From Patescibacteria group bacterium UBA4664 (GTDB taxonomy: Bacteria > Patescibacteriota > Saccharimonadia > CAILAD01 > BJGX01), in the NCBI GenBank assembly GCA_943354915.1, contig CALRDO010000005.1:3896-27895 (forward strand): 24,000 nucleotides of DNA, given 5' to 3'. This document shows positions 3,232 through 15,814 of this stretch, in pieces. A model generated the notes under the pieces. The model saw nothing but the letters and a program-made list of their open reading frames with translations. It searched no databases and was not told where the DNA came from. Positions within the stretch are counted from its first letter, which is position 1. Every line of letters starts with the position of its first letter. Made by a program: the position numbers and the translations under genes.

Positions 3232-5667
3232 CTACAAGCCTAGAGCGTCTTTAATGGCCTGGCTGACTTCCTGTTTTGGCCTGGCGTAGTTAGCTCTACT
3301 TAACTCCACCATTTTTGCAAACTCCTCTGGCCTAGGTACCCCCAGTGGTGGCATGATTTCTTTTAATGAAAAGGGCGTAGATGGCACTCCGCCAATAATA
3401 ATCTTAGTAGCAGCATAATGGTTCTGGATATTAACTAAGTCAGATTCATCAAACGAAGGAGCAAATTGTTTTACAAGATATTCGGCATCATCTGGCCCTA
3501 CTCTAAAACTAATTATTGAACCAACATTCCCAAATACCGAATCCCTAACCTTTTCGTCTAGCTGAGAAATAAACTGGTTGGCCATAATTAGGCTTAAGCG
3601 GTATTTACGGGCTTCTGACAATATCGTAGCGATAGAGTCGGTTGAATAATTTTGGAACTCATCGATGTATAAACTAAAGTCTCGGCGCTGGTCCTCGGGG
3701 GTATCAGCTCTACTCATTGCGGCTATTTGGAATTTGATTATAAAAATAATCCCTAATAGTTGTGAATTAATATCCCCGAGCAGCCCCTTCGATAAATTAA
3801 CAAATAAAATTTTACCATCGTCCATAATATCACGTAGGTCAAAGGCTGATTTTTTTTGACCAACGATATTACGCATTACTTCATTATTGGCAAAAGCACC
3901 AAACTTCGATACGAACCAGCCGAGCATTTCTGACTTTGAATGCTGGTCGGTCTGAGCCATTTCGCCTGTCCAGAAATCCTGAATAATGGGGTCTTTAACA
4001 TGCTTGAATTTTTTCTTTAAATAATTATCATCCGTAAAAACTTTTGGGATTTCAATGAAAGTACCGCCTTCTGGATCGGCCATGACAGTTAAGGCCGCAT
4101 TCCTAAACCAGGCTTCAAACCTTGGTCCCATAAAACCTTGCCGGTTGGGGTCATAAATTTTATATAACATTGATATTGCTTCCTGTACTAAGAAATCTTT
4201 TTGTTCTGGATGGGCAGGGTCAAATTCCATAATATTCCAGCCCATCGGATTCTCAGTATCACCAGGATTAAAATAGATAACATCCTTGACTCTCTCTGGT
4301 GGAACCTTAGCCATCAGTTTCTCAGCCGTATCGCCGTGCGGATCGATAAAAGCCACGCCCTTGCCAGCATACATATCTTGAACAATACAATTCTCCAAAA
4401 AAACCGATTTACCCGTGCCGGTTTGGCCAATAATATATAAATGCCTTCGGCGATCATCATCGGAGAGTCTAATAATCTCTTCCTTGCCCTGATAGATGTT
4501 TGTCCCCAAAATTATACCCGTTTCGCTAATGGCCGCAGGTGCTGCTGCCTCCTTCATGCCAGTTCTTTCAACCTGGGCAGACATTTCGATTGTTTCACTT
4601 GGTAAATGGAATACCGTAGCTAGCTCAACTGTATTTAAAACAAGCCTATTTTTGTTGGCAGGAAAATACCTAAATATAAAATTAGTTGCCAATTCCTCGA
4701 CATTATCGGCCTTCTTAAATTCAAATGAGTTAGAGTTATTTAGTGTCATCTGGGCAAAACCCAGCTTAATACTGTCAACTATACCCTCTGCGGCTATGAG
4801 CTCATCGGAGCTTGCGACCACCCTCATAAGAGTCTCAAATACGGGATATTTTGACTTTTCTTCTAACAGTTCAATTTCTTTTTGCTCAAGCATATTGGGC
4901 TGTTTGTCACTCTTGGGTTGAGCCTCTTCTGATTTAGTACCCTTAAATGGTGCCTTAGCGACTTCCCCTGCTATGCCGATAATCTTCTCGCTCCCTTCTT
5001 TTTTATCAGGGTCCAAAATTCGCTTAGCAGCTGCCCTAGACGTCTTCAGCCACTTAGGGCTAGCCGGCCTAATTAGTATCTGGATAGCTGCGCCATCGGT
5101 ATCGTTTAAATTAGAGAGGCCCGATAGTATGCCCGACAAGGCATCTTGTTCGCTCATTTGATAATTTTGAATAGGGTAGTAGCTAGATTTTTTGAGTTCA
5201 AATTCTCCACCTGCCACGCCGCTTATTTTTGATTCTTTAGAAAAGAAATTAACTTCCTCTTTTTGTTCAATTTGAATGCCGGGATAACCCGAAGCAAGTG
5301 CTTTTTTAATCGGCTCCAATAAACTCACCGGCACAGCTACATAAAAAAATATCTGCTTGGCTTTTGCTACAATCTCAAAGCCCACATAACGCTGGCCATG
5401 GACCTTAGAATGTTTAGCCGCTATCCCAGATAATAACCTGTAAACTCCCTCGGCCTTAGCGATATTTGTTTGAATTTGTTCGTGGCCATCTCTGCCATCC
5501 TTAGTTGCTTCCCTAGGGGGAATTTTAATTAGTAGCGGAACTAATTTTAGGCTTCTCTCGACTGCCTTAGATTTACGGGAACTTTTTAGGATTAAAATAA
5601 CTGCCATCACAATAAAAACCATCAATGCTACTGCTATTAAAATAATGATTAACAAGAAATTATCCAT
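3232..5667 (-). CDS. Membrane-anchored FtsK/HerA-superfamily P-loop ATPase, TraG/VirD4 (type IV coupling protein)-like
   Basis: 811-aa ORF with an N-terminal TM helix (LLIIILIAVALMVFIVMAVILIL). Walker A is GQTGTGKS (4405-4428). Walker B is LYIDEFQNY (the DE codons are at 3658-3663). The downstream ARKYRLSLIMANQFISQL motif is typical of TraG/TraD/VirD4-like ATPases. The roughly 400-aa region between the TM helix and the ATPase is uncharacterised. Confidence 0.7.
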   Translation of the reverse strand: MDNFLLIIILIAVALMVFIVMAVILILKSSRKSKAVERSLKLVPLLIKIPPREATKDGRDGHEQIQTNIAKAEGVYRLLSGIAAKHSKVHGQRYVGFEIVAKAKQIFFYVAVPVSLLEPIKKALASGYPGIQIEQKEEVNFFSKESKISGVAGGEFELKKSSYYPIQNYQMSEQDALSGILSGLSNLNDTDGAAIQILIRPASPKWLKTSRAAAKRILDPDKKEGSEKIIGIAGEVAKAPFKGTKSEEAQPKSDKQPNMLEQKEIELLEEKSKYPVFETLMRVVASSDELIAAEGIVDSIKLGFAQMTLNNSNSFEFKKADNVEELATNFIFRYFPANKNRLVLNTVELATVFHLPSETIEMSAQVERTGMKEAAAPAAISETGIILGTNIYQGKEEIIRLSDDDRRRHLYIIGQTGTGKSVFLENCIVQDMYAGKGVAFIDPHGDTAEKLMAKVPPERVKDVIYFNPGDTENPMGWNIMEFDPAHPEQKDFLVQEAISMLYKIYDPNRQGFMGPRFEAWFRNAALTVMADPEGGTFIEIPKVFTDDNYLKKKFKHVKDPIIQDFWTGEMAQTDQHSKSEMLGWFVSKFGAFANNEVMRNIVGQKKSAFDLRDIMDDGKILFVNLSKGLLGDINSQLLGIIFIIKFQIAAMSRADTPEDQRRDFSLYIDEFQNYSTDSIATILSEARKYRLSLIMANQFISQLDEKVRDSVFGNVGSIISFRVGPDDAEYLVKQFAPSFDESDLVNIQNHYAATKIIIGGVPSTPFSLKEIMPPLGVPRPEEFAKMVELSRANYARPKQEVSQAIKDALGL

Positions 5668-5673
5668 TTGATA

Positions 5674-6075
5674 TTACTCGATATCCAAATTAAATCTTTT
5701 TTTCAAATATGCCCGACTTAAACTATGTTGAGCCTCGTCCTCAAAATATGGGTCATTATTGGTTTTTGCAACAATCTCATTGGCCTTAGTAACCCACTCC
5801 TTTTCGATTGAGCCCGAATCCTCGGCTGGTAGCTGGGCGAGTTGATTCTCAAAATTATTACTACCATCTTGTGGGGTTTGGGCTGGTCGCTCTAAATGCT
5901 GGGCACTACCGAGTGGTTCGGCTAACTGCGTGTTATGGGTCAGGCCTGGCGAGGGTGATACTGGGCTTATAATTTCAGATTTCGGCGGTATATTCTTGGT
6001 ATTTTTCTCAACATTAATCCCCTCCACACTATTAGTAGACTCAACAGAACCAGTCTTTTGCTCATCTGGCTTCAT
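5674..6075 (-). CDS. Hypothetical small protein (133 aa, low-complexity/Pro-Ser-rich N-terminal half), likely co-transcribed with the downstream ATPase
   Basis: The ORF ends 6 nt before the ATPase start. I recognise no motif. It is supported only by position and by an extended -10 element directly upstream. Confidence 0.45.
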   Translation of the reverse strand: MKPDEQKTGSVESTNSVEGINVEKNTKNIPPKSEIISPVSPSPGLTHNTQLAEPLGSAQHLERPAQTPQDGSNNFENQLAQLPAEDSGSIEKEWVTKANEIVAKTNNDPYFEDEAQHSLSRAYLKKRFNLDIE

Positions 6076-6082
6076 AGCAATA

Positions 6083-6091
6083 ATTATAGCA
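6083..6091 (-). promoter_or_regulatory. Extended -10 element TGCTATAAT, 7 nt upstream of the ATG at 6075 (leaderless configuration)
   Basis: Plus strand attatagca at 6083-6091 is TGCTATAAT on the minus strand. The 7-nt gap (6076-6082) places the expected transcription start at or next to the start codon. No Shine-Dalgarno sequence is present. Confidence 0.35.
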
Positions 6092-6119
6092 GTTATGCTT
6101 GCTAGCCACTAGAGCACAG

Positions 6120-7589
6120 CTAATAGTGGATCCAAACTGGCGTGCCGATATCAGCCCAGCCAAATAAGAAGGCGGCTGAACTCTTAGGCATATTGACGCA
6201 ACCATGACTCCCCCCGTAATAATAGTCTTGCCCGCCAAAACTACTCCGCCAGTCGGCGTCGTGCAAGCCGTAGCCTGCATAAAATGGCATCCAATAATCA
6301 ACATAGACATTGTAATCCCATCCATATGGCCGGCCGTTAAGATAGCGGCTGGTTTCTTTAGCATAAATACTAAATAAACCAGTTACCGTAGGGAAGCCTG
6401 CTCCAGTAGCTCCGCTAGTTATAGCCGTAGAAAAGATTGCTTGATTATCCTGGTAAGCCCAAAGTGTCTGGCTTGACAGGTTAATCTCTATATATCGACC
6501 ATAGTCCAGGCTAACAGATCGGTTCGTCTCGGTCTGAAAAGGAACCGGCTGTGACTGCAGATTAATTGAGACGCTATTGGTTTTAATGTTACTAATGATT
6601 TCATCAACGGCAGCATCTTGAATAATTACTGTGCCGTTTTGGCCTTCTTGCTCGACTGAACTTGCCCCGTTACGAATATTAACCTTCTTATTTCTAGGAG
6701 CAACATCTACTTGGTTGGCGACCGACTGCAGATAGCCCTTAACCTGCTCCCGCGAGAGATCAACCGCGAGGGTAACCTTGCCATCTGGGCTAACAGCATG
6801 GCTAAATACTAACCAATGCCCCATTGCGGTCTTGTCTGGTACAAACTGCCGACCTTCATAATTTAGCACAGCAGTGCGTGATAATATCTCCTCTGCCGAC
6901 TGCTTGGAGCTAGCTATATCGCTAGCTAAAAACGGCGCCTTAATTAAGACCGGTTCGAGCTTAAGGTTACGATCTTTGCCGTCTGCAATTGAACTGCTAA
7001 TGATAGAGGTTAATAAATTCTGATCGACCCTAAAGCCATCCGTATCGGGGACTACCTCTAGGCGTCCTTCAACTGCCTTCAATGTGGCATTAACAGGGTC
7101 GACCCCCACCACCGACACTACCTTAGTGGTAAATTTTTTAAGCTCATCTCGATTAATACTATAGGCATACCCTAGCTGTCCCCTTTTATCGGCATCAAAA
7201 AAACCTAGTAGCGCTATGGGGCTAGAATGCCCAACATCATAGGCAAGCTTGAGGGTCTCATCTAACTCATACCTGGCTCCCAGGTCGCTACCTGTAACAG
7301 AAAATTTATGGTCACCAACCTCTACGGTAAATTCTCTTTCCTTTTGCATACCAGCTAATATCTTCCGGGCTTCGTTTTGGGTCTTAAAGCTCAGGTCAGT
7401 GCCAGAAACCGATACGCCGGGGAAAATTACCCCAAGTGTAAAAACACTAACCAATAAATTCATCAGTACAAATGCAATTACAGTGCCTACCAGTATGAAC
7501 CAAATTCTAGATACCATAGAGGGTTTTTGACCACTTCTAGAGAGTATTGGCGGTAAGCTTAAAAAATGCGAGTGAGGTTTATTGCCCAT
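6120..7589 (-). CDS. L,D-transpeptidase (YkuD domain) with an N-terminal membrane anchor and a YoaR/VanW-type putative peptidoglycan-binding region
   Basis: 489-aa ORF with a TM helix (IWFILVGTVIAFVLMNLLVSVFTLGVIF). The C-terminal YkuD catalytic signature is GLHDADWRSSFGG...GGSHGCVNMP (His...Ser-His-Gly-Cys). The start could instead be the internal Met at MVSRIWF. Confidence 0.85.
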   Translation of the reverse strand: MGNKPHSHFLSLPPILSRSGQKPSMVSRIWFILVGTVIAFVLMNLLVSVFTLGVIFPGVSVSGTDLSFKTQNEARKILAGMQKEREFTVEVGDHKFSVTGSDLGARYELDETLKLAYDVGHSSPIALLGFFDADKRGQLGYAYSINRDELKKFTTKVVSVVGVDPVNATLKAVEGRLEVVPDTDGFRVDQNLLTSIISSSIADGKDRNLKLEPVLIKAPFLASDIASSKQSAEEILSRTAVLNYEGRQFVPDKTAMGHWLVFSHAVSPDGKVTLAVDLSREQVKGYLQSVANQVDVAPRNKKVNIRNGASSVEQEGQNGTVIIQDAAVDEIISNIKTNSVSINLQSQPVPFQTETNRSVSLDYGRYIEINLSSQTLWAYQDNQAIFSTAITSGATGAGFPTVTGLFSIYAKETSRYLNGRPYGWDYNVYVDYWMPFYAGYGLHDADWRSSFGGQDYYYGGSHGCVNMPKSSAAFLFGWADIGTPVWIHY

Positions 7590-7625: not shown

Positions 7626-10265
7626 CTATAATACTCGAGCTTTTATTTTTGAGCGGATAAGCTTAGTGGCTAGGCTTATTTTTTCATTTATTTGTGCTGA
7701 TGTTGGGTTGGGCCCCAAGTCGATACCAATTGTTATTGTTAAGCGCTTTTTTGAACTCTTTTTTAGTTCATCATTTTGGAATTCTACCTTATACTGCACC
7801 GAATAAAACTTATTTACCAAAAGCTTACTAATGCTCTGATAGATAGTTATATCAGCTAATTCTATTGTTAAGTCCCGATAGATTATTTGATAAGTTGGGC
7901 GGGGAAGAGCTATTGGTTCGGTCTTCGATTCTATAATTTTTTGGATTTCAATACTCATCATTGATACCTCGGTATCAATTTCGTATTGCCTTAAGGTAGC
8001 AGGGGAGAGTTGCCCGAATTCCCCTAGCCTCGGCAAAATTGATCCACTTCGATTTGGGATGTATAGCTTACTGACTATGCGAGCTACCACCAACTCCTGT
8101 CGCTGCCAGCCAAACAGGTTGTCTAGTACTCCCTTAATTCTAGCTAAACTATGCCCATGCCAAATGCTCACGGTCAGTACCCACTTCTCTTTTGGAGATG
8201 GCTGTGACTGCTCATAAACACGGCTGATTTCAAAAATGCCATCATGGCTACTAGTTTGGTTTGTACTAACTACCCTCAAGTGGCTACTAATAAGGTTGGT
8301 GCGTAAGAAGTCTTGCTCACTACTAAGCGGGTTTTCGATTTGAAGGTTTTTAGCACTATCGCCGCTAATATTGTCTACATCAAACTTCGACACAAATGAA
8401 TAGGTCATGACTTCAACGAGCCCTAATGCCGAGAGCTTTTCTCTAATCACCATTAGGGAGGGGAGTAGCTGATGGTCGGTGGTATTAGAGTTTTGGATTT
8501 CAGGCAAAGTCGCAGGCATCACTGCGTAGCCTAGAGACTTAGCAACTTCCTCAAATAAATCTGACTCTATTGAGATATCATTTCTCCACCATGGTACTTC
8601 AACAGATATGATGTGGTTAAAATTCTCTAAATATCTTCTTCCGCCAAGAAATAATTTTGATTTAGTATATTTAGTTACTGGCACAATGGAGGTCTTGCCA
8701 GTTAAATTCATTACTCTGTTTTTCCCAATAAAAATACCAGCGCCGGCTGGCACCAGCTTGGCTTTGGGCTCTCCAGAGGATAAAAATAGAACATCGCCAG
8801 GCTTTAAGCTAATATCGGGGACTTCCATACCTGACTTAATTTGATCTTTTAAACTAGCTCCTATCAATATCCCGGCGCTCGCAAATAGCTGGCTCAATAC
8901 TTCTGCACCAGCACTAGGTTCTAGCTTACTGCCTAAAGCCTTAACCGACTTGGTCAGTGAAAAATGTACCGGCTTAAAACCGCGCTTAGCAAATATCTGG
9001 ATAACTTCTTTCTCATCTAGCTTAAAGCCTAAGACCTTCTCGGCTTTTCTTATTCGCATACCTAATTTAAAAGAATTATATTCCAGCTCGACCTGGCGGG
9101 TAGGGGAGTCAATAACTTCAGCATTACAAATAGACTGCAGTAAACCAATAATTCTTCTGGTTGCAAAATCTGGGAGGGGAAGAGGGAGGCCTCGTTCGAA
9201 CCGTGATGATGCCTCAGTTCTAATGCCGTGGCGTAAAGCTGATTTTCTAATGGTAGTTTTATCAAAATTGGCGACCTCAATCCAAATTTCTGACGTGTCG
9301 CTACTGGTCGCGGTATTTTGACCACCAATAACACCTGCTAATCCGATGGGGCCAGAGTTATCCACAACCACTAAATCCTGGCTACTAAGATTGATAAGCT
9401 TGCCCTCTAGGGTCGTGAGTGCTTCACCAGGCCTCGCAAAGCGTACACCAAAATCTCCAGAAATCTTACTGGCATCATAGGCATGAGCAGGCTGCCCATA
9501 CTCAAGCATCACAAAGTTTGTAATGTCCACAACAGCATTAATTGTTCTTAAGCCTGCCGATTGTAAGTTATCCACAAGCCATGGAGGGCTAGGTGCGTCT
9601 GGGCTTACCCTTAGCTTAGTTAAATAAAAAGCATGGCACTGCCCGCTTTGCTTGACTTTTGCCACTTCTCTGTCCTGATATGTTATTTTAGCGATATCAG
9701 GTTCAATAAGACTATTATCAGATTGAGTAGCTGAAATTTCACGGGCTAGACCGATGTAAGAGAGGTAGTCCCAGCGGTTCGAGGGGGTCTTAATGTCTAT
9801 CACATCGCTAATTTTATCGATGTCGCACAATGGTTGCCCAAGCGGTAGGCTAGGGGGGAGCACTACTATGCCGCTATGGTCTTCGCCCCACCCCATTTCT
9901 AATTCCGAGCATAGCATCCCATGTGACCTCTCCCCTCTAATTTCTACTTCCTTTATTTCATCCCCACTAGGCAGGATTGTGCCTACCTGTGCTAGTGCAA
10001 CTATAATATTAGCTTCAATATTCGTGGCGCCGCAAACGACACTAACCACGCCTATGCCGGTGTCAACTTTAGCAATTTTGAGCTTATTGGCATTAGGGTG
10101 CAAAGTAACCTCGAGGACTCTGGCGACAATTATTTTTGCATCAAGTTTTTTCGCATACAGTATTTCTTCAACTTCTACTTCTGTCAATTCTAATGCCTCG
10201 GCCATAGCTTCGGTACTTAATCTTTTTTTAAGATATGAATTAGTTAATTTAGTACTAATTTTCAT
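7626..10265 (-). CDS. pheT: Phenylalanine--tRNA ligase beta subunit, unusually long (879 aa) because of an internal insertion
   Basis: N-terminal tRNA-binding domain (IIVARVLEVTLHPNANKLKIAKVDTG...VCGATN). B3/4 region (NAVVDITNFVMLEYGQPAHAYD). B5 region (LGFKLDEKEVIQIFAKRGF ... VPWWRNDISIESDLFEEVAKSLGY). The ATG at 10265 directly abuts the pheS stop codon (10266-10268). Confidence 0.95.
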   Translation of the reverse strand: MKISTKLTNSYLKKRLSTEAMAEALELTEVEVEEILYAKKLDAKIIVARVLEVTLHPNANKLKIAKVDTGIGVVSVVCGATNIEANIIVALAQVGTILPSGDEIKEVEIRGERSHGMLCSELEMGWGEDHSGIVVLPPSLPLGQPLCDIDKISDVIDIKTPSNRWDYLSYIGLAREISATQSDNSLIEPDIAKITYQDREVAKVKQSGQCHAFYLTKLRVSPDAPSPPWLVDNLQSAGLRTINAVVDITNFVMLEYGQPAHAYDASKISGDFGVRFARPGEALTTLEGKLINLSSQDLVVVDNSGPIGLAGVIGGQNTATSSDTSEIWIEVANFDKTTIRKSALRHGIRTEASSRFERGLPLPLPDFATRRIIGLLQSICNAEVIDSPTRQVELEYNSFKLGMRIRKAEKVLGFKLDEKEVIQIFAKRGFKPVHFSLTKSVKALGSKLEPSAGAEVLSQLFASAGILIGASLKDQIKSGMEVPDISLKPGDVLFLSSGEPKAKLVPAGAGIFIGKNRVMNLTGKTSIVPVTKYTKSKLFLGGRRYLENFNHIISVEVPWWRNDISIESDLFEEVAKSLGYAVMPATLPEIQNSNTTDHQLLPSLMVIREKLSALGLVEVMTYSFVSKFDVDNISGDSAKNLQIENPLSSEQDFLRTNLISSHLRVVSTNQTSSHDGIFEISRVYEQSQPSPKEKWVLTVSIWHGHSLARIKGVLDNLFGWQRQELVVARIVSKLYIPNRSGSILPRLGEFGQLSPATLRQYEIDTEVSMMSIEIQKIIESKTEPIALPRPTYQIIYRDLTIELADITIYQSISKLLVNKFYSVQYKVEFQNDELKKSSKKRLTITIGIDLGPNPTSAQINEKISLATKLIRSKIKARVL

Positions 10266-11261
10266 TTAAAATTGCTCCAAAAATTCTATTTTTGGTCTCC
10301 AAAGCTGACGAAGATCATCAATATTATACTTTATTACTGCGATCCTCTCCACTCCCCACCCAAAAGCAAACCCACTATATTGTTCTGTATCAATGCCTCC
10401 CTTTTTTAAAACATCTGGGTGCACCATACCGGCTCCGCCCAGCTCTAGCCACTTGCCATTATATTTAGCATCTAACTCTACGGATGGCTCAGTATATGGA
10501 AAATAGCTAGGCCTGAATCTTATTTCTGTTTCCTTGCCGAGCTGCCGTTTAACAATTTGCAATAGGGCTCCTTTAAGGTTTGCCATACTCACTCCTTTCC
10601 CAACCACCAAGCCCTCTACCTGGTTAAATGACCAGGAGTGTGTAGCGTCCTCGTTTTCACTTCTAAAGACTTTACCCGGGACAATAATCTTAAACGGTGG
10701 TTTATTTTCTAGCATAAACCTAACCTGCATTCCTGAAGTATGGGTTCTTGGTAAAAATTTTTGATTGCTATTTTTAATATAAAACGTGTCTTGCATCTCT
10801 CTTGCCGGGTGCGTTGCAGGCATATTCAAGGCTTCAAAATTAAACCAGTCCGACTCGATTTCTGGGCTATCAACAATAGCAAAGCCTAATTCTGTAAATA
10901 TCTGATAAGTTTCCTTTAGCACTAAGCTAACTGGGTGCAAGTGTCCAACCCTTGACTCGCTAGATAAACTTTTCCCGGGGCTACTAATATCGAATGGTTG
11001 ATATTGAGTTTGGTTCTCTAAGTCTTCGAGCCTGGTTTGCGCAGAAGCTAGCACAGCTTCTATCGACTCCTTTAGGCTATTTAGTTCCCGCCCCAGTTTA
11101 GCCCTTTGGGCCCCCTTGAGCTGAGCTAAATCGGCCATTGCACTAGCCAATAAGCTTTTCTTGCCGAGATATTTTGATCGTAAAAGAACAAGATCCTTCT
11201 TATTTTTTAGCTTAAGTGAGCTACTTTTAATCTCACCAATAATGCTGGCTGACTTGATCAT
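10266..11261 (-). CDS. pheS: Phenylalanine--tRNA ligase alpha subunit
   Basis: 331-aa ORF with an N-terminal coiled-coil. Class II core motifs are present (HPVSLVLKE, PATHPAREMQDTFY, LPRTHTSGMQVR, VFRSENEDATHSWSFNQVEG, FRPSYFPYTEPSVE, GAGMVHP, GFAFGWGVERIA). Confidence 0.95.
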   Translation of the reverse strand: MIKSASIIGEIKSSSLKLKNKKDLVLLRSKYLGKKSLLASAMADLAQLKGAQRAKLGRELNSLKESIEAVLASAQTRLEDLENQTQYQPFDISSPGKSLSSESRVGHLHPVSLVLKETYQIFTELGFAIVDSPEIESDWFNFEALNMPATHPAREMQDTFYIKNSNQKFLPRTHTSGMQVRFMLENKPPFKIIVPGKVFRSENEDATHSWSFNQVEGLVVGKGVSMANLKGALLQIVKRQLGKETEIRFRPSYFPYTEPSVELDAKYNGKWLELGGAGMVHPDVLKKGGIDTEQYSGFAFGWGVERIAVIKYNIDDLRQLWRPKIEFLEQF

Positions 11262-11266
11262 TAGAT

Positions 11267-11656
11267 TTAAATATTACCCTTTCTAGTAAGAAAAAACACT
11301 TCAACTAATACTACAATTAGTAAAAGGAGCATTATATCCCGCCAGCTTAGTGCGCGCAAACTAGATAGGGCTAGTAAGAGAGAGCTACTAAACCCTATTA
11401 GCAAACCTGTTCGCAGGCTACCTCTAAGTATAGCCATCAAATTATCTTTATTGCTAGATTTTCTAGAACGTATTTTATAGAAAATAATTGTTATGAGCGA
11501 CGAGAGCATCAGTAGTAAATTAATAAACCAAAATGTTACGCCTGCTGGGCCGAGCCTAGAGGGATTAGTGGTAAACAAGGAAAACACAAATAGCACGGCA
11601 GACAATAGAAAAATCAGCATGATAGCCACTAGATAAGCTTTACGATACTTCTTCAT
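11267..11656 (-). CDS. Hypothetical small integral membrane protein (about 4 TM helices), first gene of the pheST unit
   Basis: Hydrophobic ORF ending 5 nt before pheS. The ORF track begins it at a TTG (11668). I prefer the ATG at 11656 (MKKYRKAYLV...). No recognisable family. Confidence 0.5.
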   Translation of the reverse strand: MKKYRKAYLVAIMLIFLLSAVLFVFSLFTTNPSRLGPAGVTFWFINLLLMLSSLITIIFYKIRSRKSSNKDNLMAILRGSLRTGLLIGFSSSLLLALSSLRALSWRDIMLLLLIVVLVEVFFLTRKGNI

Positions 11657-11703
11657 AAGATATAACAATTATCGCACAGCTGGTTTTTATAGTACAGGGT
11701 ACC

Positions 11704-11835
11704 GGGCAATACTAATAATAAATGAATAATAAAATAACTACATTGAATACATTAATTTTATAGACATACATAGGTACCCTACTGAACACTTTATTTATCA
11801 ATAAATAATGAGTACTAAATTATTATGTATTGCCC
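11704..11835. repeat. 16-nt inverted repeat (one 1-nt bulge) flanking about 99 nt of A/T-rich spacer
   Basis: GGGCAATACTAATAAT (11704-11719) pairs with ATTATTA-T-GTATTGCCC (11819-11835). A second pair crosses it: AGGGTACC (11695-11702) with GGTACCCT (11773-11780). Confidence 0.6.
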
Positions 11836-12048
11836 CACGGATTACTAGCCATCATACTGCCAATTTGAGAAGAGTATTGCTTGTGGATAACAATTTAGTT
11901 GCTATTTAGCTTAAATAAGAGCTTTGTTGTAATTATTACTATATAACTACTAATATTGGGCGCTTGTACCCCTTGCTGCGTATTTATGACTATTTATGAG
12001 TTCTATGCCCTGTTTTTGTCTTTAACGACCTTTTATCCGTGCACAAAT

Positions 12049-12071
12049 AAAAAACACCTGGGTGGCAGGTG
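12049..12071 (-). terminator. Rho-independent terminator
   Basis: Minus strand reads CACCUG-CCACC-CAGGUG (12071-12055), followed immediately by UUUUUU (12054-12049). On the plus strand only UUUU follows the stem, so the minus orientation fits better. Confidence 0.6.
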
Positions 12072-12075
12072 TTTT

Positions 12076-12500
12076 AGATCATATTTTGACTAATTAGAAA
12101 TGGTTACGGGCCGATGCAAATGCCCTTAAATGTTTAGAAACAAGATTGGCATGTATCGGCCCGGATTGGGACCCTAACTGGGAGCTAAGGTCCATTGAAA
12201 GGTTGCAGTCGCAGTTCATTTAATTTTAGGTACGACGAGTTGCGACTGACGCTTCCCAACCATCGGTACGGTACTTGACCGGAGTTCTACCTTTTAGACC
12301 TAAAAGATATAATTCCGGCCAGGTTCCTTCGAGTATAAGCTGTTTCCCCCTAGAGCATAATGACTGCAAACAGGCAGACTCTACGACAGTAAGGAAGTTC
12401 TGGTACAAAAAACAAGGGGGTTGCTTTTTGTAGCCAGAGATTCCTTACCGTCAATTGATGTATGATGATCCTTTAAGAGTACAGGTCATCCCTTACGGTG
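12076..12500 (-). ncRNA. Candidate structured non-coding RNA of unknown class (5' end uncertain, possibly about 12549)
   Basis: Six nearly contiguous hairpins at 12385-12452 (about 29 bp, CCCCC loop), 12351-12383, 12279-12318, 12206-12248, 12169-12193 (9 bp, 7-nt loop CUCCCAG) and 12107-12163. At least 4 G-U pairs in minus sense, across two of the helices, would be A-C mismatches in plus sense. The region looks more GC-rich than its A/T-rich flanks. It is bracketed by an extended -10 promoter (12556-12564) and a terminator (12049-12071). No convincing ORF. Confidence 0.45.
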
Positions 12501-12555
12501 GTTTATTGTATGGCATAATTTTTATTTTTTGTTTTTAATGAACTAGAATAGCTCT

Positions 12556-12585
12556 AGTATAGCATTATACTTATGCTTATGTCAA
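12556..12585 (-). promoter_or_regulatory. Candidate promoter for the structured RNA
   Basis: Minus strand reads TTGACA (12585-12580), an 18-nt spacer, then TATACT (12561-12556). The hexamer is preceded by TGC, giving TGCTATACT. This is the same 9-mer found upstream of rmuC. Confidence 0.35.
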
Positions 12586-12636
12586 GAGTATTGCTGCTCT
12601 ATTTAAGTGTACACCTGGAATATAGTGTTATAATTT

Positions 12637-13620
12637 TTACAACAAGCCTACTTTTATCTTTACTTCGGCAAGTTTTTTATTGGCTATTTGGCTAGCCCTG
12701 GTGTTCCCCTGCTCAATAATACTCATTAATTTCTCTTCATTTGATCGATACTTTTCAAATTCCAACTGAAGTGTGGCTAATTTTTGAGCTACAAGCTCGC
12801 CCAGTGCCTGCTTAAACTCGCCATAGCCCTTAGCGGCAAAGATTTTTTCTACTTTAGCAATGTCAACATCAGCAAAGCCAGCGTATATCTCTATCAGGTT
12901 AGCTATAGCTGGCTTATTTTTTGGATCATAAATGATTGTAGTATCTGAATCTGTCACTGCCCTCTTGAATTTCTTAACTACTGATTCGGCGTTCTCGCCG
13001 AGCGCCACATAACTGTCTGGGCGATCGCTTTTACTCATCTTATAGCGGGGATCATCTAGCCTTTTTACCCTTGCGCCATGGCTAGGTACTACGGCTTTAG
13101 GCAAAATAAATGTTTCTCCATAGATATTATTAAAGCGAGTAGCAATATTCCTGGCTAACTCAACATGTTGAGCCTGGTCGTCGCCAACCGGGACTTCATT
13201 AGTGTCATAAAGTAATATATCAGCTGCCATCAGCACAGGATAGTTAAAAAACCCAACCAATTGGCCCTCCGAAGAAGTTTTTTTAGTCTTATCCTTGAAT
13301 TGCGTCATTCGATGGAGCTCTCCCATCGTCACAAAGTTATCAAGTATCCAAAACAGCTCAGCGTGGGCGGGTACCATGGATTGCACCAATATAATTGATT
13401 TATCTGGGTCAACCCCTACCGCTAAGAGCCAAGCTACCAGGTCTAAAGTCCTTTTTTTAAGCTCAGCCGGGTCCTGTCTAGCTGTTAGGGCATGCGTATT
13501 AGGCACAAAGAAGATGCTTCTATTATCCCCCTGATTGAGCGGCCAATGCTTCATTGCCCCTAAATAGTTGCCAATGGTCATCTCCCCAGTTGGTTTTAAG
13601 CCTGATAATACAGTTTTCAT
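12637..13620 (-). CDS. trpS: Tryptophan--tRNA ligase
   Basis: MKTVLSGLKPTGEMTIGNYLGAMKHW matches the TrpRS N-terminus and its TIGN variant of the HIGH motif. KMSKS is present (YKMSKSD). The ORF track extends to a GTG at 13635. The ATG at 13620 aligns with known TrpRS N-termini and sits 6 nt downstream of a TATAAT (13632-13627). Confidence 0.93.
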   Translation of the reverse strand: MKTVLSGLKPTGEMTIGNYLGAMKHWPLNQGDNRSIFFVPNTHALTARQDPAELKKRTLDLVAWLLAVGVDPDKSIILVQSMVPAHAELFWILDNFVTMGELHRMTQFKDKTKKTSSEGQLVGFFNYPVLMAADILLYDTNEVPVGDDQAQHVELARNIATRFNNIYGETFILPKAVVPSHGARVKRLDDPRYKMSKSDRPDSYVALGENAESVVKKFKRAVTDSDTTIIYDPKNKPAIANLIEIYAGFADVDIAKVEKIFAAKGYGEFKQALGELVAQKLATLQLEFEKYRSNEEKLMSIIEQGNTRASQIANKKLAEVKIKVGLL

Positions 13621-13646
13621 AGTTTTATTATACACCGAACAGCTTA

Positions 13647-14717
13647 CTAATCATCGCTATTGGGCCTATCAATGAAAGCTGGCTCTACGGCGTCCTGAGT
13701 GCCTGCGATATTAACGACATCTTTATCGACTTTTTTGAGTTCCTTATGAGCATTATTGTAATGATTAACAGTGGTCGAAAGCGAGCCACCAAGCTTATGC
13801 ATAAATCCTTCATAGCTCTTAATATGACGTCCGAGCATGCCAACTCTCTTTTGAATTTCTTTAGCTTGGTCCTCTATCTGGAGACTCCTTAATCCTTGCA
13901 GTACTGTCTGCAAATAAGCCATGAAGGTCGTGGGACTAACGATAATTACCTTTTTGTCTTGAAAGGCATACTCAATGAGGTCCCTTGAGGCGGTATCGGC
14001 GGTACCAATCTTATTCGTCAAGAGATCATTATAAATTGCCTCCGATGGGATAAACATAAAAGCAAAATCCATAGTGTTCTCGCTGGGTCTAATATACTTG
14101 CTGGTTTCATCAATACGGGCCTTGAGATCTTGCTTAAACTTCTTAATAAGGACTTCTTTTTGAGCCTTATCCTTCGCTTCTACCAAACGATTGTAGTTTT
14201 CTAAGCTAAATTTTGAATCTATTGGCAAGATTTTGTCTTTTTCTAGCAAGATTACCGCATCTACCATATCGCCATTCTTAAATTTATACTGTAATTTATA
14301 GCAACTAGATGGCAAAACATTGTCCAGTACGGTTTGCAGGTAATATTCTCCTAATACGCCTCTCTGTTTAGGGTTCTGCAAAACATTTTGGAGAGTTTTT
14401 AACTCATCTGCGACATCAACAACTCTTTTATTGGTCTCGTCTAGCTTCGTGAGCCGTTCGGTGACATCAATAATAAGCTTAGATGATTCGCTCATCTGTT
14501 TTTGAACGCTGGCCTGCATAGCAGAGTTGTTTTTATCTATCCTATCGTTCAGGTGAGACTGCGATTGGTTAATAAGCTGTTGAATACCCTGAAGGTCTTG
14601 CTTTAACATGCCAAGCAAATCAGAGCTGGTATCGGGCTTTTTGTTTATTAACAGGTATATAACTATCAATAAGGCAAGTAGAACGAAGCTGGATATAACT
14701 ATCAATACCGTATTCAT
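13647..14717 (-). CDS. rmuC: DNA recombination protein RmuC
   Basis: N-terminal TM helix and a long coiled-coil. RmuC family motifs are present (NPKQRGVLGEYYLQTVL, DAVILLEKDKILPIDSKF, FAFMFIPSEAIY, VIIVSPTTFMAYLQTV). I place the start at the second ATG (14717) because the AAGGAG at 14732-14727 abuts the first ATG (14726) but lies 9 nt from the second. Confidence 0.85.
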   Translation of the reverse strand: MNTVLIVISSFVLLALLIVIYLLINKKPDTSSDLLGMLKQDLQGIQQLINQSQSHLNDRIDKNNSAMQASVQKQMSESSKLIIDVTERLTKLDETNKRVVDVADELKTLQNVLQNPKQRGVLGEYYLQTVLDNVLPSSCYKLQYKFKNGDMVDAVILLEKDKILPIDSKFSLENYNRLVEAKDKAQKEVLIKKFKQDLKARIDETSKYIRPSENTMDFAFMFIPSEAIYNDLLTNKIGTADTASRDLIEYAFQDKKVIIVSPTTFMAYLQTVLQGLRSLQIEDQAKEIQKRVGMLGRHIKSYEGFMHKLGGSLSTTVNHYNNAHKELKKVDKDVVNIAGTQDAVEPAFIDRPNSDD

Positions 14718-14738
14718 TAAGCACATCTCCTTTTAATT

Positions 14739-14747
14739 AGTATAGCA
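14739..14747 (-). promoter_or_regulatory. Extended -10 element TGCTATACT upstream of rmuC-trpS
   Basis: Plus strand agtatagca at 14739-14747 is TGCTATACT on the minus strand. It predicts a short leader that contains the AAGGAG Shine-Dalgarno sequence. Confidence 0.35.
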
Positions 14748-14945
14748 CCCTTAATTTATTAATAAAAACGGCTGCTCGTAATAACTCCCGGGCACCAATG
14801 GTAACTACTATCTATTACCCACTTTGAACAATATATTACTTCATTAGATAGATTTATATTTTATACCTATCCTAAGCTACTTTATAGCTTAAAAACAGCC
14901 ATTAAATACATATACTCAATGCTTTAGCACTAGTAATATGTGCTA

Positions 14946-15296
14946 TTATTCAACCCCTAAAGACCTTAGGTATGTGATAGCTGCAGCTATCAAAAAACCT
15001 AAAAAAGCCAACATTAGGCCCGTTTGAATATAAAAGAATAATAAAAAACCTATGCCGCCTGGAGTCGTAGGGCCCGCAAATATAACTTCATTGCTTAAAT
15101 ACCTCAATATTTGCATCAAAACAACACATCCCAGCCCATATAAAACAAAGCGACGGGTTTTTGTACGGTTTAGCTTGCGAGCTGTAACCATTAGCTTAGC
15201 CTTAGAGGGTCTGTTTGCCAATTTGTTGCTACCAGCAGTCAATTTGAGGTGATTGTTGCGTCTATTAACATTCCTGCTAGTCCCGATAGTGCTCAT
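14946..15296 (-). CDS. Hypothetical small membrane protein (Arg/Lys-rich N-terminal tail plus 2-3 TM helices)
   Basis: 116-aa ORF with a strongly basic first ~50 residues followed by hydrophobic segments (FVLYGLGCVVLMQIL, GFLLFFYIQTGLMLAFLGFLIAAAITYL). TAATAT (15309-15304) lies 7 nt upstream of the ATG. No family recognised. Confidence 0.45.
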   Translation of the reverse strand: MSTIGTSRNVNRRNNHLKLTAGSNKLANRPSKAKLMVTARKLNRTKTRRFVLYGLGCVVLMQILRYLSNEVIFAGPTTPGGIGFLLFFYIQTGLMLAFLGFLIAAAITYLRSLGVE

Positions 15297-15322
15297 GGTT
15301 AATATATTACTCTTTTTGTACG

Positions 15323-15814
15323 TTATAATCTAGGCATCCACCATGGCAATATAACCTTAACGCTCCTAGTACTGCTACGATGCGTGGTAGGAGCAAAATA
15401 CTTATCAAGTATTCTCGGCCAATTCTCCTTAAGCCAGGTTTGCTGCTCTAGGTACATATATTCTAAACCGCGCTCAGCAAATTCCTGCTTTATAACGCCT
15501 CCCCTATGGGGGTGTTGCTGTTTTTGCTGCAAGGGAGAATTAAATCCATGAGCATAGTGAGTCATCTCGTGCACTATCGTGGCTACAACTACAAATTGAG
15601 GCACTTCCATATCCTGAAAGATAGGATTTATCCTAATAATTGAGATGCTTGGATCATTACTATCAAGGCCGATAGAGCCCAGCCTTCTTTTAGCTTTTTT
15701 GCCAAAAATAATCTTAATTTGATTAGACCGGGCAATATCGCTAAAATGAGCCCCCCAAACATAGCTTAAAAGACTCTCTAGCCAGTTTTGGTTGCGATAA
15801 GAATCTATTTTCAT
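15323..15814 (-). CDS. DUF45/YgjP- or SprT-like zinc metallopeptidase-fold protein (HExxH)
   Basis: 163-aa ORF. The layout KKAKRRLGSIGLDS...ISIIRINPIF...VPQFVVVATIVHEMTHYAHG matches DUF45/SprT-type zincins: an RLGS segment, a short beta segment, then HExxH. Its ATG overlaps the upstream helicase stop codon in an ATGA (15811-15814). Confidence 0.6.
   Translation of the reverse strand: MKIDSYRNQNWLESLLSYVWGAHFSDIARSNQIKIIFGKKAKRRLGSIGLDSNDPSISIIRINPIFQDMEVPQFVVVATIVHEMTHYAHGFNSPLQQKQQHPHRGGVIKQEFAERGLEYMYLEQQTWLKENWPRILDKYFAPTTHRSSTRSVKVILPWWMPRL

Follow-up and report, generated by a model that had tools for sequence, protein, structure and literature searches.

Locus, transcription signals and predicted fold

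The stretch of DNA analyzed here (the window) comprises 24,000 nucleotides (nt) from Patescibacteria group bacterium UBA4664 (GenBank assembly GCA_943354915.1, contig CALRDO010000005.1, positions 3,896 to 27,895 of the forward strand), and its minus strand carries, in gene order, rmuC (14726-13647), trpS (13635-12637), a hypothetical membrane-like open reading frame (ORF) of 133 amino acids (11668-11267), pheS (11261-10266) and pheT (10265-7626). The gap between trpS and the 133-amino-acid ORF is 970 nt long, and we found that its upper half is filled by what is very probably a stand-alone gene for a structured non-coding RNA (ncRNA). This RNA element is present as a single copy in the window and has a G+C content of 0.42-0.48, compared to about 0.30 in its flanks. 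The nearest named relative of the window's tryptophanyl-tRNA synthetase (TrpRS) is a Candidatus Saccharibacteria protein at 98% identity, and named entries among the best 120 TrpRS relatives come nearly all from Saccharibacteria, with an Ignavibacteria entry at 59% identity. An exact look-up of the window's TrpRS sequence returned no record. A preliminary description of the window had proposed a lineage-specific, independently transcribed large structured RNA at this position, and that proposal is supported by our comparisons with Rfam, by the homologs, by covariation and by the analysis of coding potential.

A consensus promoter scan places a -35 hexamer, TTGACA, at 12580..12585 and an extended -10 element, TGCTATACT, at 12556..12564 (minus strand, as for every feature of the element given below), separated by an 18-nt spacer and scoring 11/12. 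The promoter is thus of the sigma-70 type and close to consensus. The TTGACA is invariant in all aligned relatives, the most distant ones included, and a -10 of the type TGnTAnAcT/TACAAT is retained at equal spacing. At the other end, a terminator scan identified an intrinsic terminator at 12045..12075, consisting of a 10-bp GC-rich stem (12075-12051), a 5-nt loop and a U-run; every relative has a GC-rich hairpin and U-run at this position, with a different sequence. These are the only promoter-like and the only terminator-like sites on the minus strand between 11200 and 12900, and both had been noted in the preliminary description (a TTGACA-18 promoter at 12556-12585 and a strong terminator with a U-run). 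When relatives are aligned, the conserved block is bounded by the -35 on its 5' side and by the terminator on its 3' side, and the 50 nt from the trpS stop codon to the -35 are diverged. The predicted primary transcript is about 500 nt long (12045..12550), with a start near 12549 deduced from the position of the -10 and a 3' end in the U-run. The structured unit had previously been put at about 400-500 nt; its structured nature stands, and its length is corrected to about 500 nt by inclusion of a conserved A-rich 5' leader. Judged by these signals, the RNA gene is an independent transcription unit.

The minus-strand segment 12049-12560 folds with a predicted free energy of -170.5 kcal/mol, compared to -116.8 +/- 6.0 kcal/mol for dinucleotide shuffles (z = -9.0), and none of 100 shuffles folds as well; the plus-strand fold has a z of -5.65. 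Consensus pairs contain 197 G-U/U-G cells versus 64 A-C/C-A cells in the proposed sense, a ratio of about 3:1. This excess and the direction in which promoter and terminator point identify the window's minus strand as the sense strand, in line with an earlier argument from a handful of G-U pairs. Both the minimum free energy (MFE) fold and the consensus fold are chains of local hairpins plus a junction, with unpaired termini. All six hairpins that had been described between 12107 and 12452 were found again, and they are kept in relatives.

Distribution among Saccharibacteria

DNA was fetched around TrpRS orthologs at 98, 81, 76, 72, 70, 70, 69, 65, 63 and 61% identity, and one further Saccharibacteria locus, at 51% identity, came from a genome scan with generic back-translated TrpRS patterns. 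We found the RNA element in every Saccharibacteria trpS locus fetched, down to 51% TrpRS identity, whether reached via the TrpRS protein (L002, L081-L092, L116-L118 and L120-L122) or via a DNA pattern (L095-L115). These loci hold about 24 distinct element sequences from at least six clades; at 81% and 76% TrpRS identity, the element is 77-78% identical at the nucleotide level over about 610 nt. A metagenome scan with a pattern derived from the 3'-most large hairpin, H7, returned 22 matches, of which 16 are genuine, all of them just 3' of the end of trpS. The pattern matches L094, L100, L101, L104, L108 and L112 proved on alignment to be unrelated GC-rich sequence and were discarded.

The TrpRS-pattern scan also returned trpS loci of many phyla, which served as negative controls. 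A profile hidden Markov model of the whole element had no match in 79 trpS loci outside Saccharibacteria, and a covariance model of the 3' domain (R1) had none in 13 of those 79, which included L001, L018, L037 and L072 from other members of the candidate phyla radiation (CPR; Parcubacteria, Falkowbacteria and other Patescibacteria). No match to the element was found in IMG/VR viral contigs or in phage or plasmid collections. The RNA is thus restricted to, and apparently universal in, the sampled Saccharibacteria. The preliminary description had raised the questions of whether homologs exist and whether the locus is conserved next to trpS; the element lies at the same locus in all sampled Saccharibacteria relatives, and we read this conserved adjacency as conserved gene order and not as obligate coupling.

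The contigs of several relatives end inside the element (L082, L083, L085, L093, L103, L109 and L110), with breaks that fall in the A-rich 5' tract or in the 27-bp inverted repeat of hairpin H2 and that are probably an assembler artefact. Because contigs end there, the RNA is often truncated in public assemblies.

Conservation of the fold

The fold of the RNA is maintained by compensatory substitutions. RNAalifold, applied to 20 full-length members, gave 96 pairs, and compensatory double changes occur in 46 of these. Across the consensus structure, 50 of 97 pairs keep pairing through two-sided changes, a strong signal on the covariation that the preliminary description had left to be checked, and about 91% of cells are paired, compared to 25-51% when the pairing partners are slid against each other. 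For the 5' half (hairpins H1-H4, 56 pairs), 91.7% of cells are paired versus 37-51% with the 3' partners slid by 1-3 columns, 28 of the 56 pairs are double-changed, and 0 of 500 shuffles reach the observed values. For the 3' domain (22 sequences, 41 pairs), 90.6% of cells are paired versus 25-42% in the slid controls, 22 of 41 pairs are double-changed, and the covariation score is 0.33 versus 0.03-0.06, in an alignment that was fitted to a covariance model, which favors the tested structure, and whose sequences are related by descent. Many helices show three to five pair types, and the margin over the slid controls is large.

In an all-against-all covariation scan for pseudoknots, the pairs returned were scattered and did not stack; G-U tolerance and common descent accounted for most of them, and they were rejected.

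Anatomy of the RNA

The 5' end is a single-stranded segment at 12517..12544, made up of AGUUCAUU followed by an A-rich tract, which is conserved and is unpaired in both the MFE and consensus folds. Within it, GUUC.UU.AAA is invariant in 10 divergent members of alignment A5, and L120, from the most distant clade, has AAGUUAAAAAAC. This conserved A-rich 5' sequence of about 60 nt and the adjoining hairpin H1 (12465..12490; 7 consensus pairs, 5 of them changed on both sides) are absent from the preliminary description. Two pairings proposed for the 5' segment were rejected: that of AGUUCAUU with AAUGAACU in the H5 loop is coincidental and confined to the window's nearest relatives, and competition of the A-rich tract with H2 for the latter's U-rich strand fails in L002, where the complementarity is not conserved.

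Hairpin H2 (12385..12452) has a helix of 27-29 bp, interrupted by a small internal loop, and CCCCC (12420-12416) as its apical loop; it had been described earlier as a helix of roughly 29 bp with this loop, and the loop is conserved. Among its 27 consensus pairs, 97.8% of cells are paired, 6 pairs are double-changed and 10 never vary. In every member, the L120 clade included, the apical loop consists of five or six C and then UUG. In the H3 region (12331..12381), an outer helix, (G)GGU/ACC(C), whose pairs covary, encloses a hairpin of variable length that appears in per-sequence folds of every clade; a GGGGG run at 12350-12346 belongs to the main clade only. Pairing of the C5 loop of H2 with this run is attractive in the main clade, but the other clades lack the G-run, and the pairing was rejected. 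Hairpin H4 (12270..12327) is the most freely covarying helix, with 15 of 18 consensus pairs double-changed.

A conserved junction, UACCGUACCGAUGGUUGGGAAGC, follows at 12251..12273, with UGGU at 12262-12259 and GGGAAG at 12257-12252. GGU.GG is invariant in alignments A5 and A6, and GGU.GGGAA is found in 20 of 21 A6 sequences; as variants, L117 has GGUGGGAGG and L120 keeps UGGUAGGGAAG. The junction tract is unpaired except for UGGU, which pairs with ACCA (12104-12101) of the UAACCAU segment at 12100..12106. This UGGU/ACCA helix closes a four-way junction around H5, H6 and H7, and its pairing is present in 22/22 sequences; covariation is silent on it because the helix never varies.

Within the junction, H5 (12206..12248) has 6 of 8 modeled pairs double-changed and H6 (12169..12193) has 8 of 10. 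Of H6 the helix alone is kept; its loop varies, reading ACCCA, UUAG, UUCG, UCCAC and others in relatives. The preliminary description had seen in the window's CUCCCAG loop a likeness to an anticodon loop; given this variation among relatives the loop is not tRNA-like, and mimicry of an anticodon or a tRNA by H6 was rejected. Hairpin H7 (12107..12163) combines a GC clamp, CGGGCCGAU/AUCGGCCCG, with internal bulges, a helix of UGCC with GGCA and a small hairpin at the apex; it has 18 pairs, 8 of them double-changed, and 98.8-100% of their cells are paired. Its CGGG, UGCCA, GGGCA and CCCG are invariant in 22 sequences, an invariance that is partly due to the retrieval pattern and that is shared by members retrieved through synteny alone. 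Taken by parts, H1, H4, H5 and H6 covary freely, and H2, the UGGU-N-GGGAAG junction and the H7 GC clamp are conserved in sequence across clades. Seven GGA motifs of the CsrA type, counted by eye, are about as many as chance would give.

Coding potential

Members share no long ORF, the longest ORFs differing in position and frame, and a Pfam search of the window's ORFs in this region gave no match. Indels in the helices are not multiples of three. With no conserved ORF and such indels, the region is not the decayed protein gene that the preliminary description had named as a refutation.

A tiny ORF of 8 codons, ATG CCA TAC AAT AAA CCA CCG TAA (MPYNKPP*), lies at 12493..12516 and may be translated in the main clade only. 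There we found 11 distinct versions of M-[PL]-[HY]-x(-x)-K-P-P-stop, whose last four codons vary almost exclusively at wobble positions; in L092, 3 nt are inserted in frame. Termination is known to be slow at a C-terminal Pro-Pro-stop. These data suggest that the tiny ORF may be a clade-specific translated leader, and the missing Shine-Dalgarno sequence before it is not evidence against translation, because most window genes examined lack one. The ATG is absent in L002, L097, L117 and L120, and unrelated short peptides occupy the position in L102, L116 and L118; because four clades bear the RNA without this ATG, the tiny ORF cannot explain the conservation of the whole RNA.

Comparison with known RNA families

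At gathering thresholds, Rfam 15 has no match in the window or in 14 homologous loci (137 kb), which answers the check that the preliminary description had considered most direct. With the threshold relaxed to E<=10 for the window, L117 and L002, only chance matches of the eukaryotic snoRNA or miRNA type appear, and they differ between members. ARAGORN found no tRNA or transfer-messenger RNA (tmRNA) in the region. In the literature that could be searched, we found neither this RNA nor any other structured ncRNA specific to Saccharibacteria or Patescibacteria described. It is a new RNA family, not in Rfam 15, and since the evidence points to no new kind of mechanism, its kind is that of the orphan large structured bacterial ncRNAs.

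Among these, the likeness is closest to OLE, ROOL, GOLLD and the raiA-ModT RNA: all are stand-alone genes of several hundred nt with covarying helices and conserved junctions and loops, and all are lineage-restricted, with a biochemical function that cannot be deduced from sequence. Like the new RNA, the raiA/ModT RNA has its own promoter and terminator, and it is very abundant (PMC10861870, PMC11706538). OLE, ROOL and GOLLD homo-oligomerize, as seen by cryo-electron microscopy (cryo-EM) (PMC12286853). The new RNA differs in having no match to the covariance models of OLE, ROOL, GOLLD or the raiA motif, either at gathering score or at E<=10, and in its host, which is a CPR lineage, theirs being Bacillota, Actinomycetota or phages. 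Nor does the RNA look like a mobile or phage-borne element, being single-copy in the window and having no match in phages, plasmids or IMG/VR.

Proposed role and alternative explanations

The best overall explanation, which we hold with slightly better than even confidence, is that the locus is a stand-alone gene for a structured ncRNA of about 500 nt, specific to Saccharibacteria and acting in trans, most probably as the scaffold of a ribonucleoprotein (RNP). Its parts are not equally secure: that this is a stand-alone structured ncRNA gene is very probable, and the chances that the product is a trans-acting scaffold or RNP RNA are about even. An independent trans-acting RNA is favored because genes have inserted on either side of it, because the distance from terminator to next ORF is variable, because the downstream spacer has promoter-like pieces of its own and because no antiterminator is conserved. 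By analogy, the conservation pattern is that of protein-bound or ornate RNAs such as SRP RNA, RNase P RNA and OLE, and not that of small RNAs (sRNAs) that conserve only a seed.

Under this explanation, the stable RNA would act in trans as an RNP scaffold and not as a cis-regulator of a neighboring gene. H1, H4, H5 and H6 would be structural spacers or scaffolding, which they resemble because their sequence changes freely with pairing kept. Because their sequence is kept across the phylum, hairpin H2 (C-rich loop included), the UGGU-N-GGGAAG junction and the clamp of H7 resemble surfaces at which a protein or another RNA could bind. In the 3' domain of the fold, H5, H6 and H7 radiate from one junction. 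More speculatively, the C-rich loop might make a long-range tertiary contact by pairing with the GGG of the junction, or it might pair with a G-rich target in another RNA; any such specific contact seems unlikely to us.

Several points weigh against this interpretation. It is from the sequence that we deduce the transcript and its ends, abundance and stability. The structures tested for covariation were derived from the same alignments, which favors them over the slid controls, and about half of the family was retrieved with an H7-derived pattern, inflating the apparent invariance of H7. The helix that would close the 3' domain is invariant, and its ACCA strand is lost in the L120 clade. The contact of the C-loop with a G-run lacks covariation support because both sides are invariant, and the GGGGG run, a candidate partner, is missing outside the main clade. 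The tiny ORF is coding-like in the main clade, where the RNA may therefore not be purely non-coding. Finally, a consensus scan of the 380-nt spacer found no good promoter for the downstream operon, and read-through into pheST is possible.

Among the alternatives, a trans-acting base-pairing regulator, whose C-rich loop would bind the G-rich ribosome-binding regions of mRNAs, is improbable but survives best. Staphylococcus aureus RNAIII, its model, is a hairpin chain of about 500 nt that has a promoter and a terminator of its own, a C-rich apical loop and an internal ORF. With RNAIII and the RsaE/RoxS-type sRNAs the Saccharibacteria RNA shares the hairpin chain of that length, a C-rich loop, signals of its own and, in some members, a small ORF; its invariant apical loop of C5-6, the UCCCA/ACCCA loop of H6 in the main clade and the conserved unstructured 5' tail would also suit such a regulator. 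It has no homology to RNAIII, however, and its helices are conserved in sequence too: sRNAs usually conserve only a seed, and here both strands of the 27-bp helix and H7 are conserved. The ORF has only 7-8 codons and is not universal, and the H6 loop varies between clades. Many window genes lack a G-rich Shine-Dalgarno sequence, and no convincing complementary G-rich target lies near start codons in the 24 kb.

Quite improbable is a cis-acting leader or attenuator of the membrane protein-pheS-pheT operon, in which ribosome stalling on the tiny upstream ORF, or binding of a tRNA or ligand, would set read-through. In other bacteria pheST is controlled by attenuators or T-boxes. In most relatives the RNA lies upstream of the pheST operon on the same strand, where a gene has inserted after trpS the RNA is found on the pheST side of it, it ends in a terminator, and in some clades it carries the short ORF ending in Pro-Pro-stop with wobble-type variation. 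We keep this alternative because the consensus scan showed no strong promoter in the spacer. Gene insertions nonetheless part the RNA from trpS or from pheST and thereby mark it as an independent gene: L120-L122 have a gene for a 261-amino-acid methyltransferase (4007-4792) between trpS and the RNA, L092 has guaA (5608-7140), with an extended -10 of its own, directly after the RNA's terminator and before the pheST operon, and L116 has an extra ORF of 114 amino acids (4661-5005) between the RNA and pheST. Across members, the terminator is separated from the next ORF by anything between about 20 and about 500 nt, and in most by 150-500 nt.

The spacer also has promoter-like pieces near the downstream ORF. 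One conserved AT-rich block, AAAGTGTTCA.TAGG and then, after 30 nt, AATGTATTCAA, lies on the minus strand at about 11745-11795 of the window (5470-5520 in L120), and a second, TGTACTATAA, lies about 25 nt before the 133-amino-acid ORF (about 11688-11697, minus strand); these blocks probably serve the membrane-protein/pheST operon as promoter or operator. GTTCATT, which recurs in this spacer, was considered as an operator and rejected, the window holding 28 matches versus 23 expected. Inspection of the alignment revealed no conserved antiterminator, and terminators differ between clades without a matching change upstream. The tiny ORF is missing in four RNA-bearing clades, and about 400 nt of conserved structure far exceed what known attenuators need. 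With T-box leaders in particular the RNA shares its place among aminoacyl-tRNA synthetase genes and a terminator at its end, and its invariant UGGU is complementary, in principle, to an ACCA 3' end, although in most members it pairs with the internal ACCA. It differs from them in having no T-box sequence (no RF00230 match), no Stem I features and no antiterminator alternative (alignment inspection found no conserved pairing that would compete with the terminator); its terminator is far from the next gene, and it lies downstream of trpS, not upstream.

That the scaffold-like RNA proposed here is a highly diverged RNase P RNA, tmRNA, 6S RNA or SRP RNA missed by Rfam is very unlikely. Its size class, strong promoter and universality in the phylum would fit, and with RNase P RNA it shares a multi-helix junction as well. 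Ten of 35 complete CPR genomes needed sub-threshold scores for their RNase P RNA, and many copies lack helices; such diverged CPR RNase P RNAs are nevertheless found with RF00010 and keep core features (PMC8172020). Because they can fall below Rfam thresholds (PMC8172020), we checked this candidate by hand. Neither RF00010 nor RF00011 matches the window, L117 or L002 at E<=10, none of 15 loci reaches the gathering score, and neither CR-I (GAGGAAAGUCC) nor CR-V (ACAGAAnnCGGCUUA) has a match in the region at up to 3 mismatches. CCGGGCC and GGCCCGG pair locally, in a hairpin that covaries, and not as a long-range P4 helix; there is no P4 pseudoknot. For tmRNA, which would have a tRNA-like domain (paired ends, a T-arm GGUUCGAnUCC and a 3' CCA) and a tag reading frame, there is no Rfam match, no conserved T-loop and no pairing of the ends; the sole T-loop-like match, at 12163-12173 with 2 mismatches, is at chance level and not conserved. 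6S RNA, a rod with paired termini and a large central bubble, likewise has no Rfam match, and the fold here is not rod-like; since the termini do not pair, the architectures of 6S RNA and tmRNA are both disfavored. No RNase P, tmRNA, 6S or SRP model reaches E<=10 in the three divergent members, and neither an acceptor stem nor the other signatures of these RNAs are present, so that the earlier exclusion of tmRNA, RNase P, T-box and SRP RNA holds.

The notion that the hairpins act at the DNA level, as a site for replication, recombination or a mobile element, or are the remains of a decayed gene, is hardly credible: long inverted repeats and contigs that end inside the element would suit it, but the bias toward G-U over A-C and the orientation of promoter and terminator indicate an RNA, the element is single-copy in the window, absent from viral, phage and plasmid collections, fixed in position across the phylum and free of any ORF remnant, and contig ends at an A-rich tract and a 27-bp inverted repeat are typical assembly break points.

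Significance

Few RNAs are large, conserved and highly structured, and those studied in detail have mostly turned out to perform fundamental biochemistry or to adopt unexpected architectures. Spare DNA is scarce in the tiny genomes of Saccharibacteria and other Patescibacteria. Here, despite such genomes, a 0.5-kb non-coding gene with a near-perfect promoter is kept in every sampled member. A bolder proposal, which we offer tentatively and think rather doubtful, is that this is an unrecognized housekeeping RNA of Saccharibacteria, of a standing like that of RNase P RNA, SRP RNA or OLE, abundant and possibly an essential part of a lineage-specific RNP or of a self-assembling RNA complex. If so, a functional site of a new type would be made up of the C-loop hairpin, the GGGAAG junction and the H7 clamp, and the RNA would have been retained in genomes of <1 Mb since an epibiotic CPR cell cannot do without it. 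If expressed and important, the RNA would open a new way into the poorly understood physiology of epibiotic "microbial dark matter", and it would be a new Rfam family and a natural target for cryo-EM. Transformable Saccharibacteria strains amenable to transposon sequencing (Tn-seq) exist, which makes its role directly testable (PMC10633639).

Gene order around the RNA

The RNA gene is part of a longer conserved block. In the window, a gene for a UvrD/PD-(D/E)XK helicase-nuclease, a 163-amino-acid ORF, an ORF of about 116 amino acids, rmuC, trpS, the RNA, the membrane protein of about 130 amino acids, pheS and pheT occupy 7626-15814. This block, from helicase-nuclease to pheT, is collinear in most syntenic Saccharibacteria loci fetched, with deviations upstream of rmuC in L117 and L120-L122. 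PheT has a match to the NlpC/P60 domain in several relatives. In L092, only about 5 nt separate the extended -10 of guaA, TGGTAGAAT, from the start codon ATG, a spacing that points to a leaderless mRNA. In the window, a recognizable Shine-Dalgarno sequence (AAAGGAG) was seen only upstream of rmuC; most genes examined, with starts at 10265, 11261, 13635, 15296 and 15814, have none.

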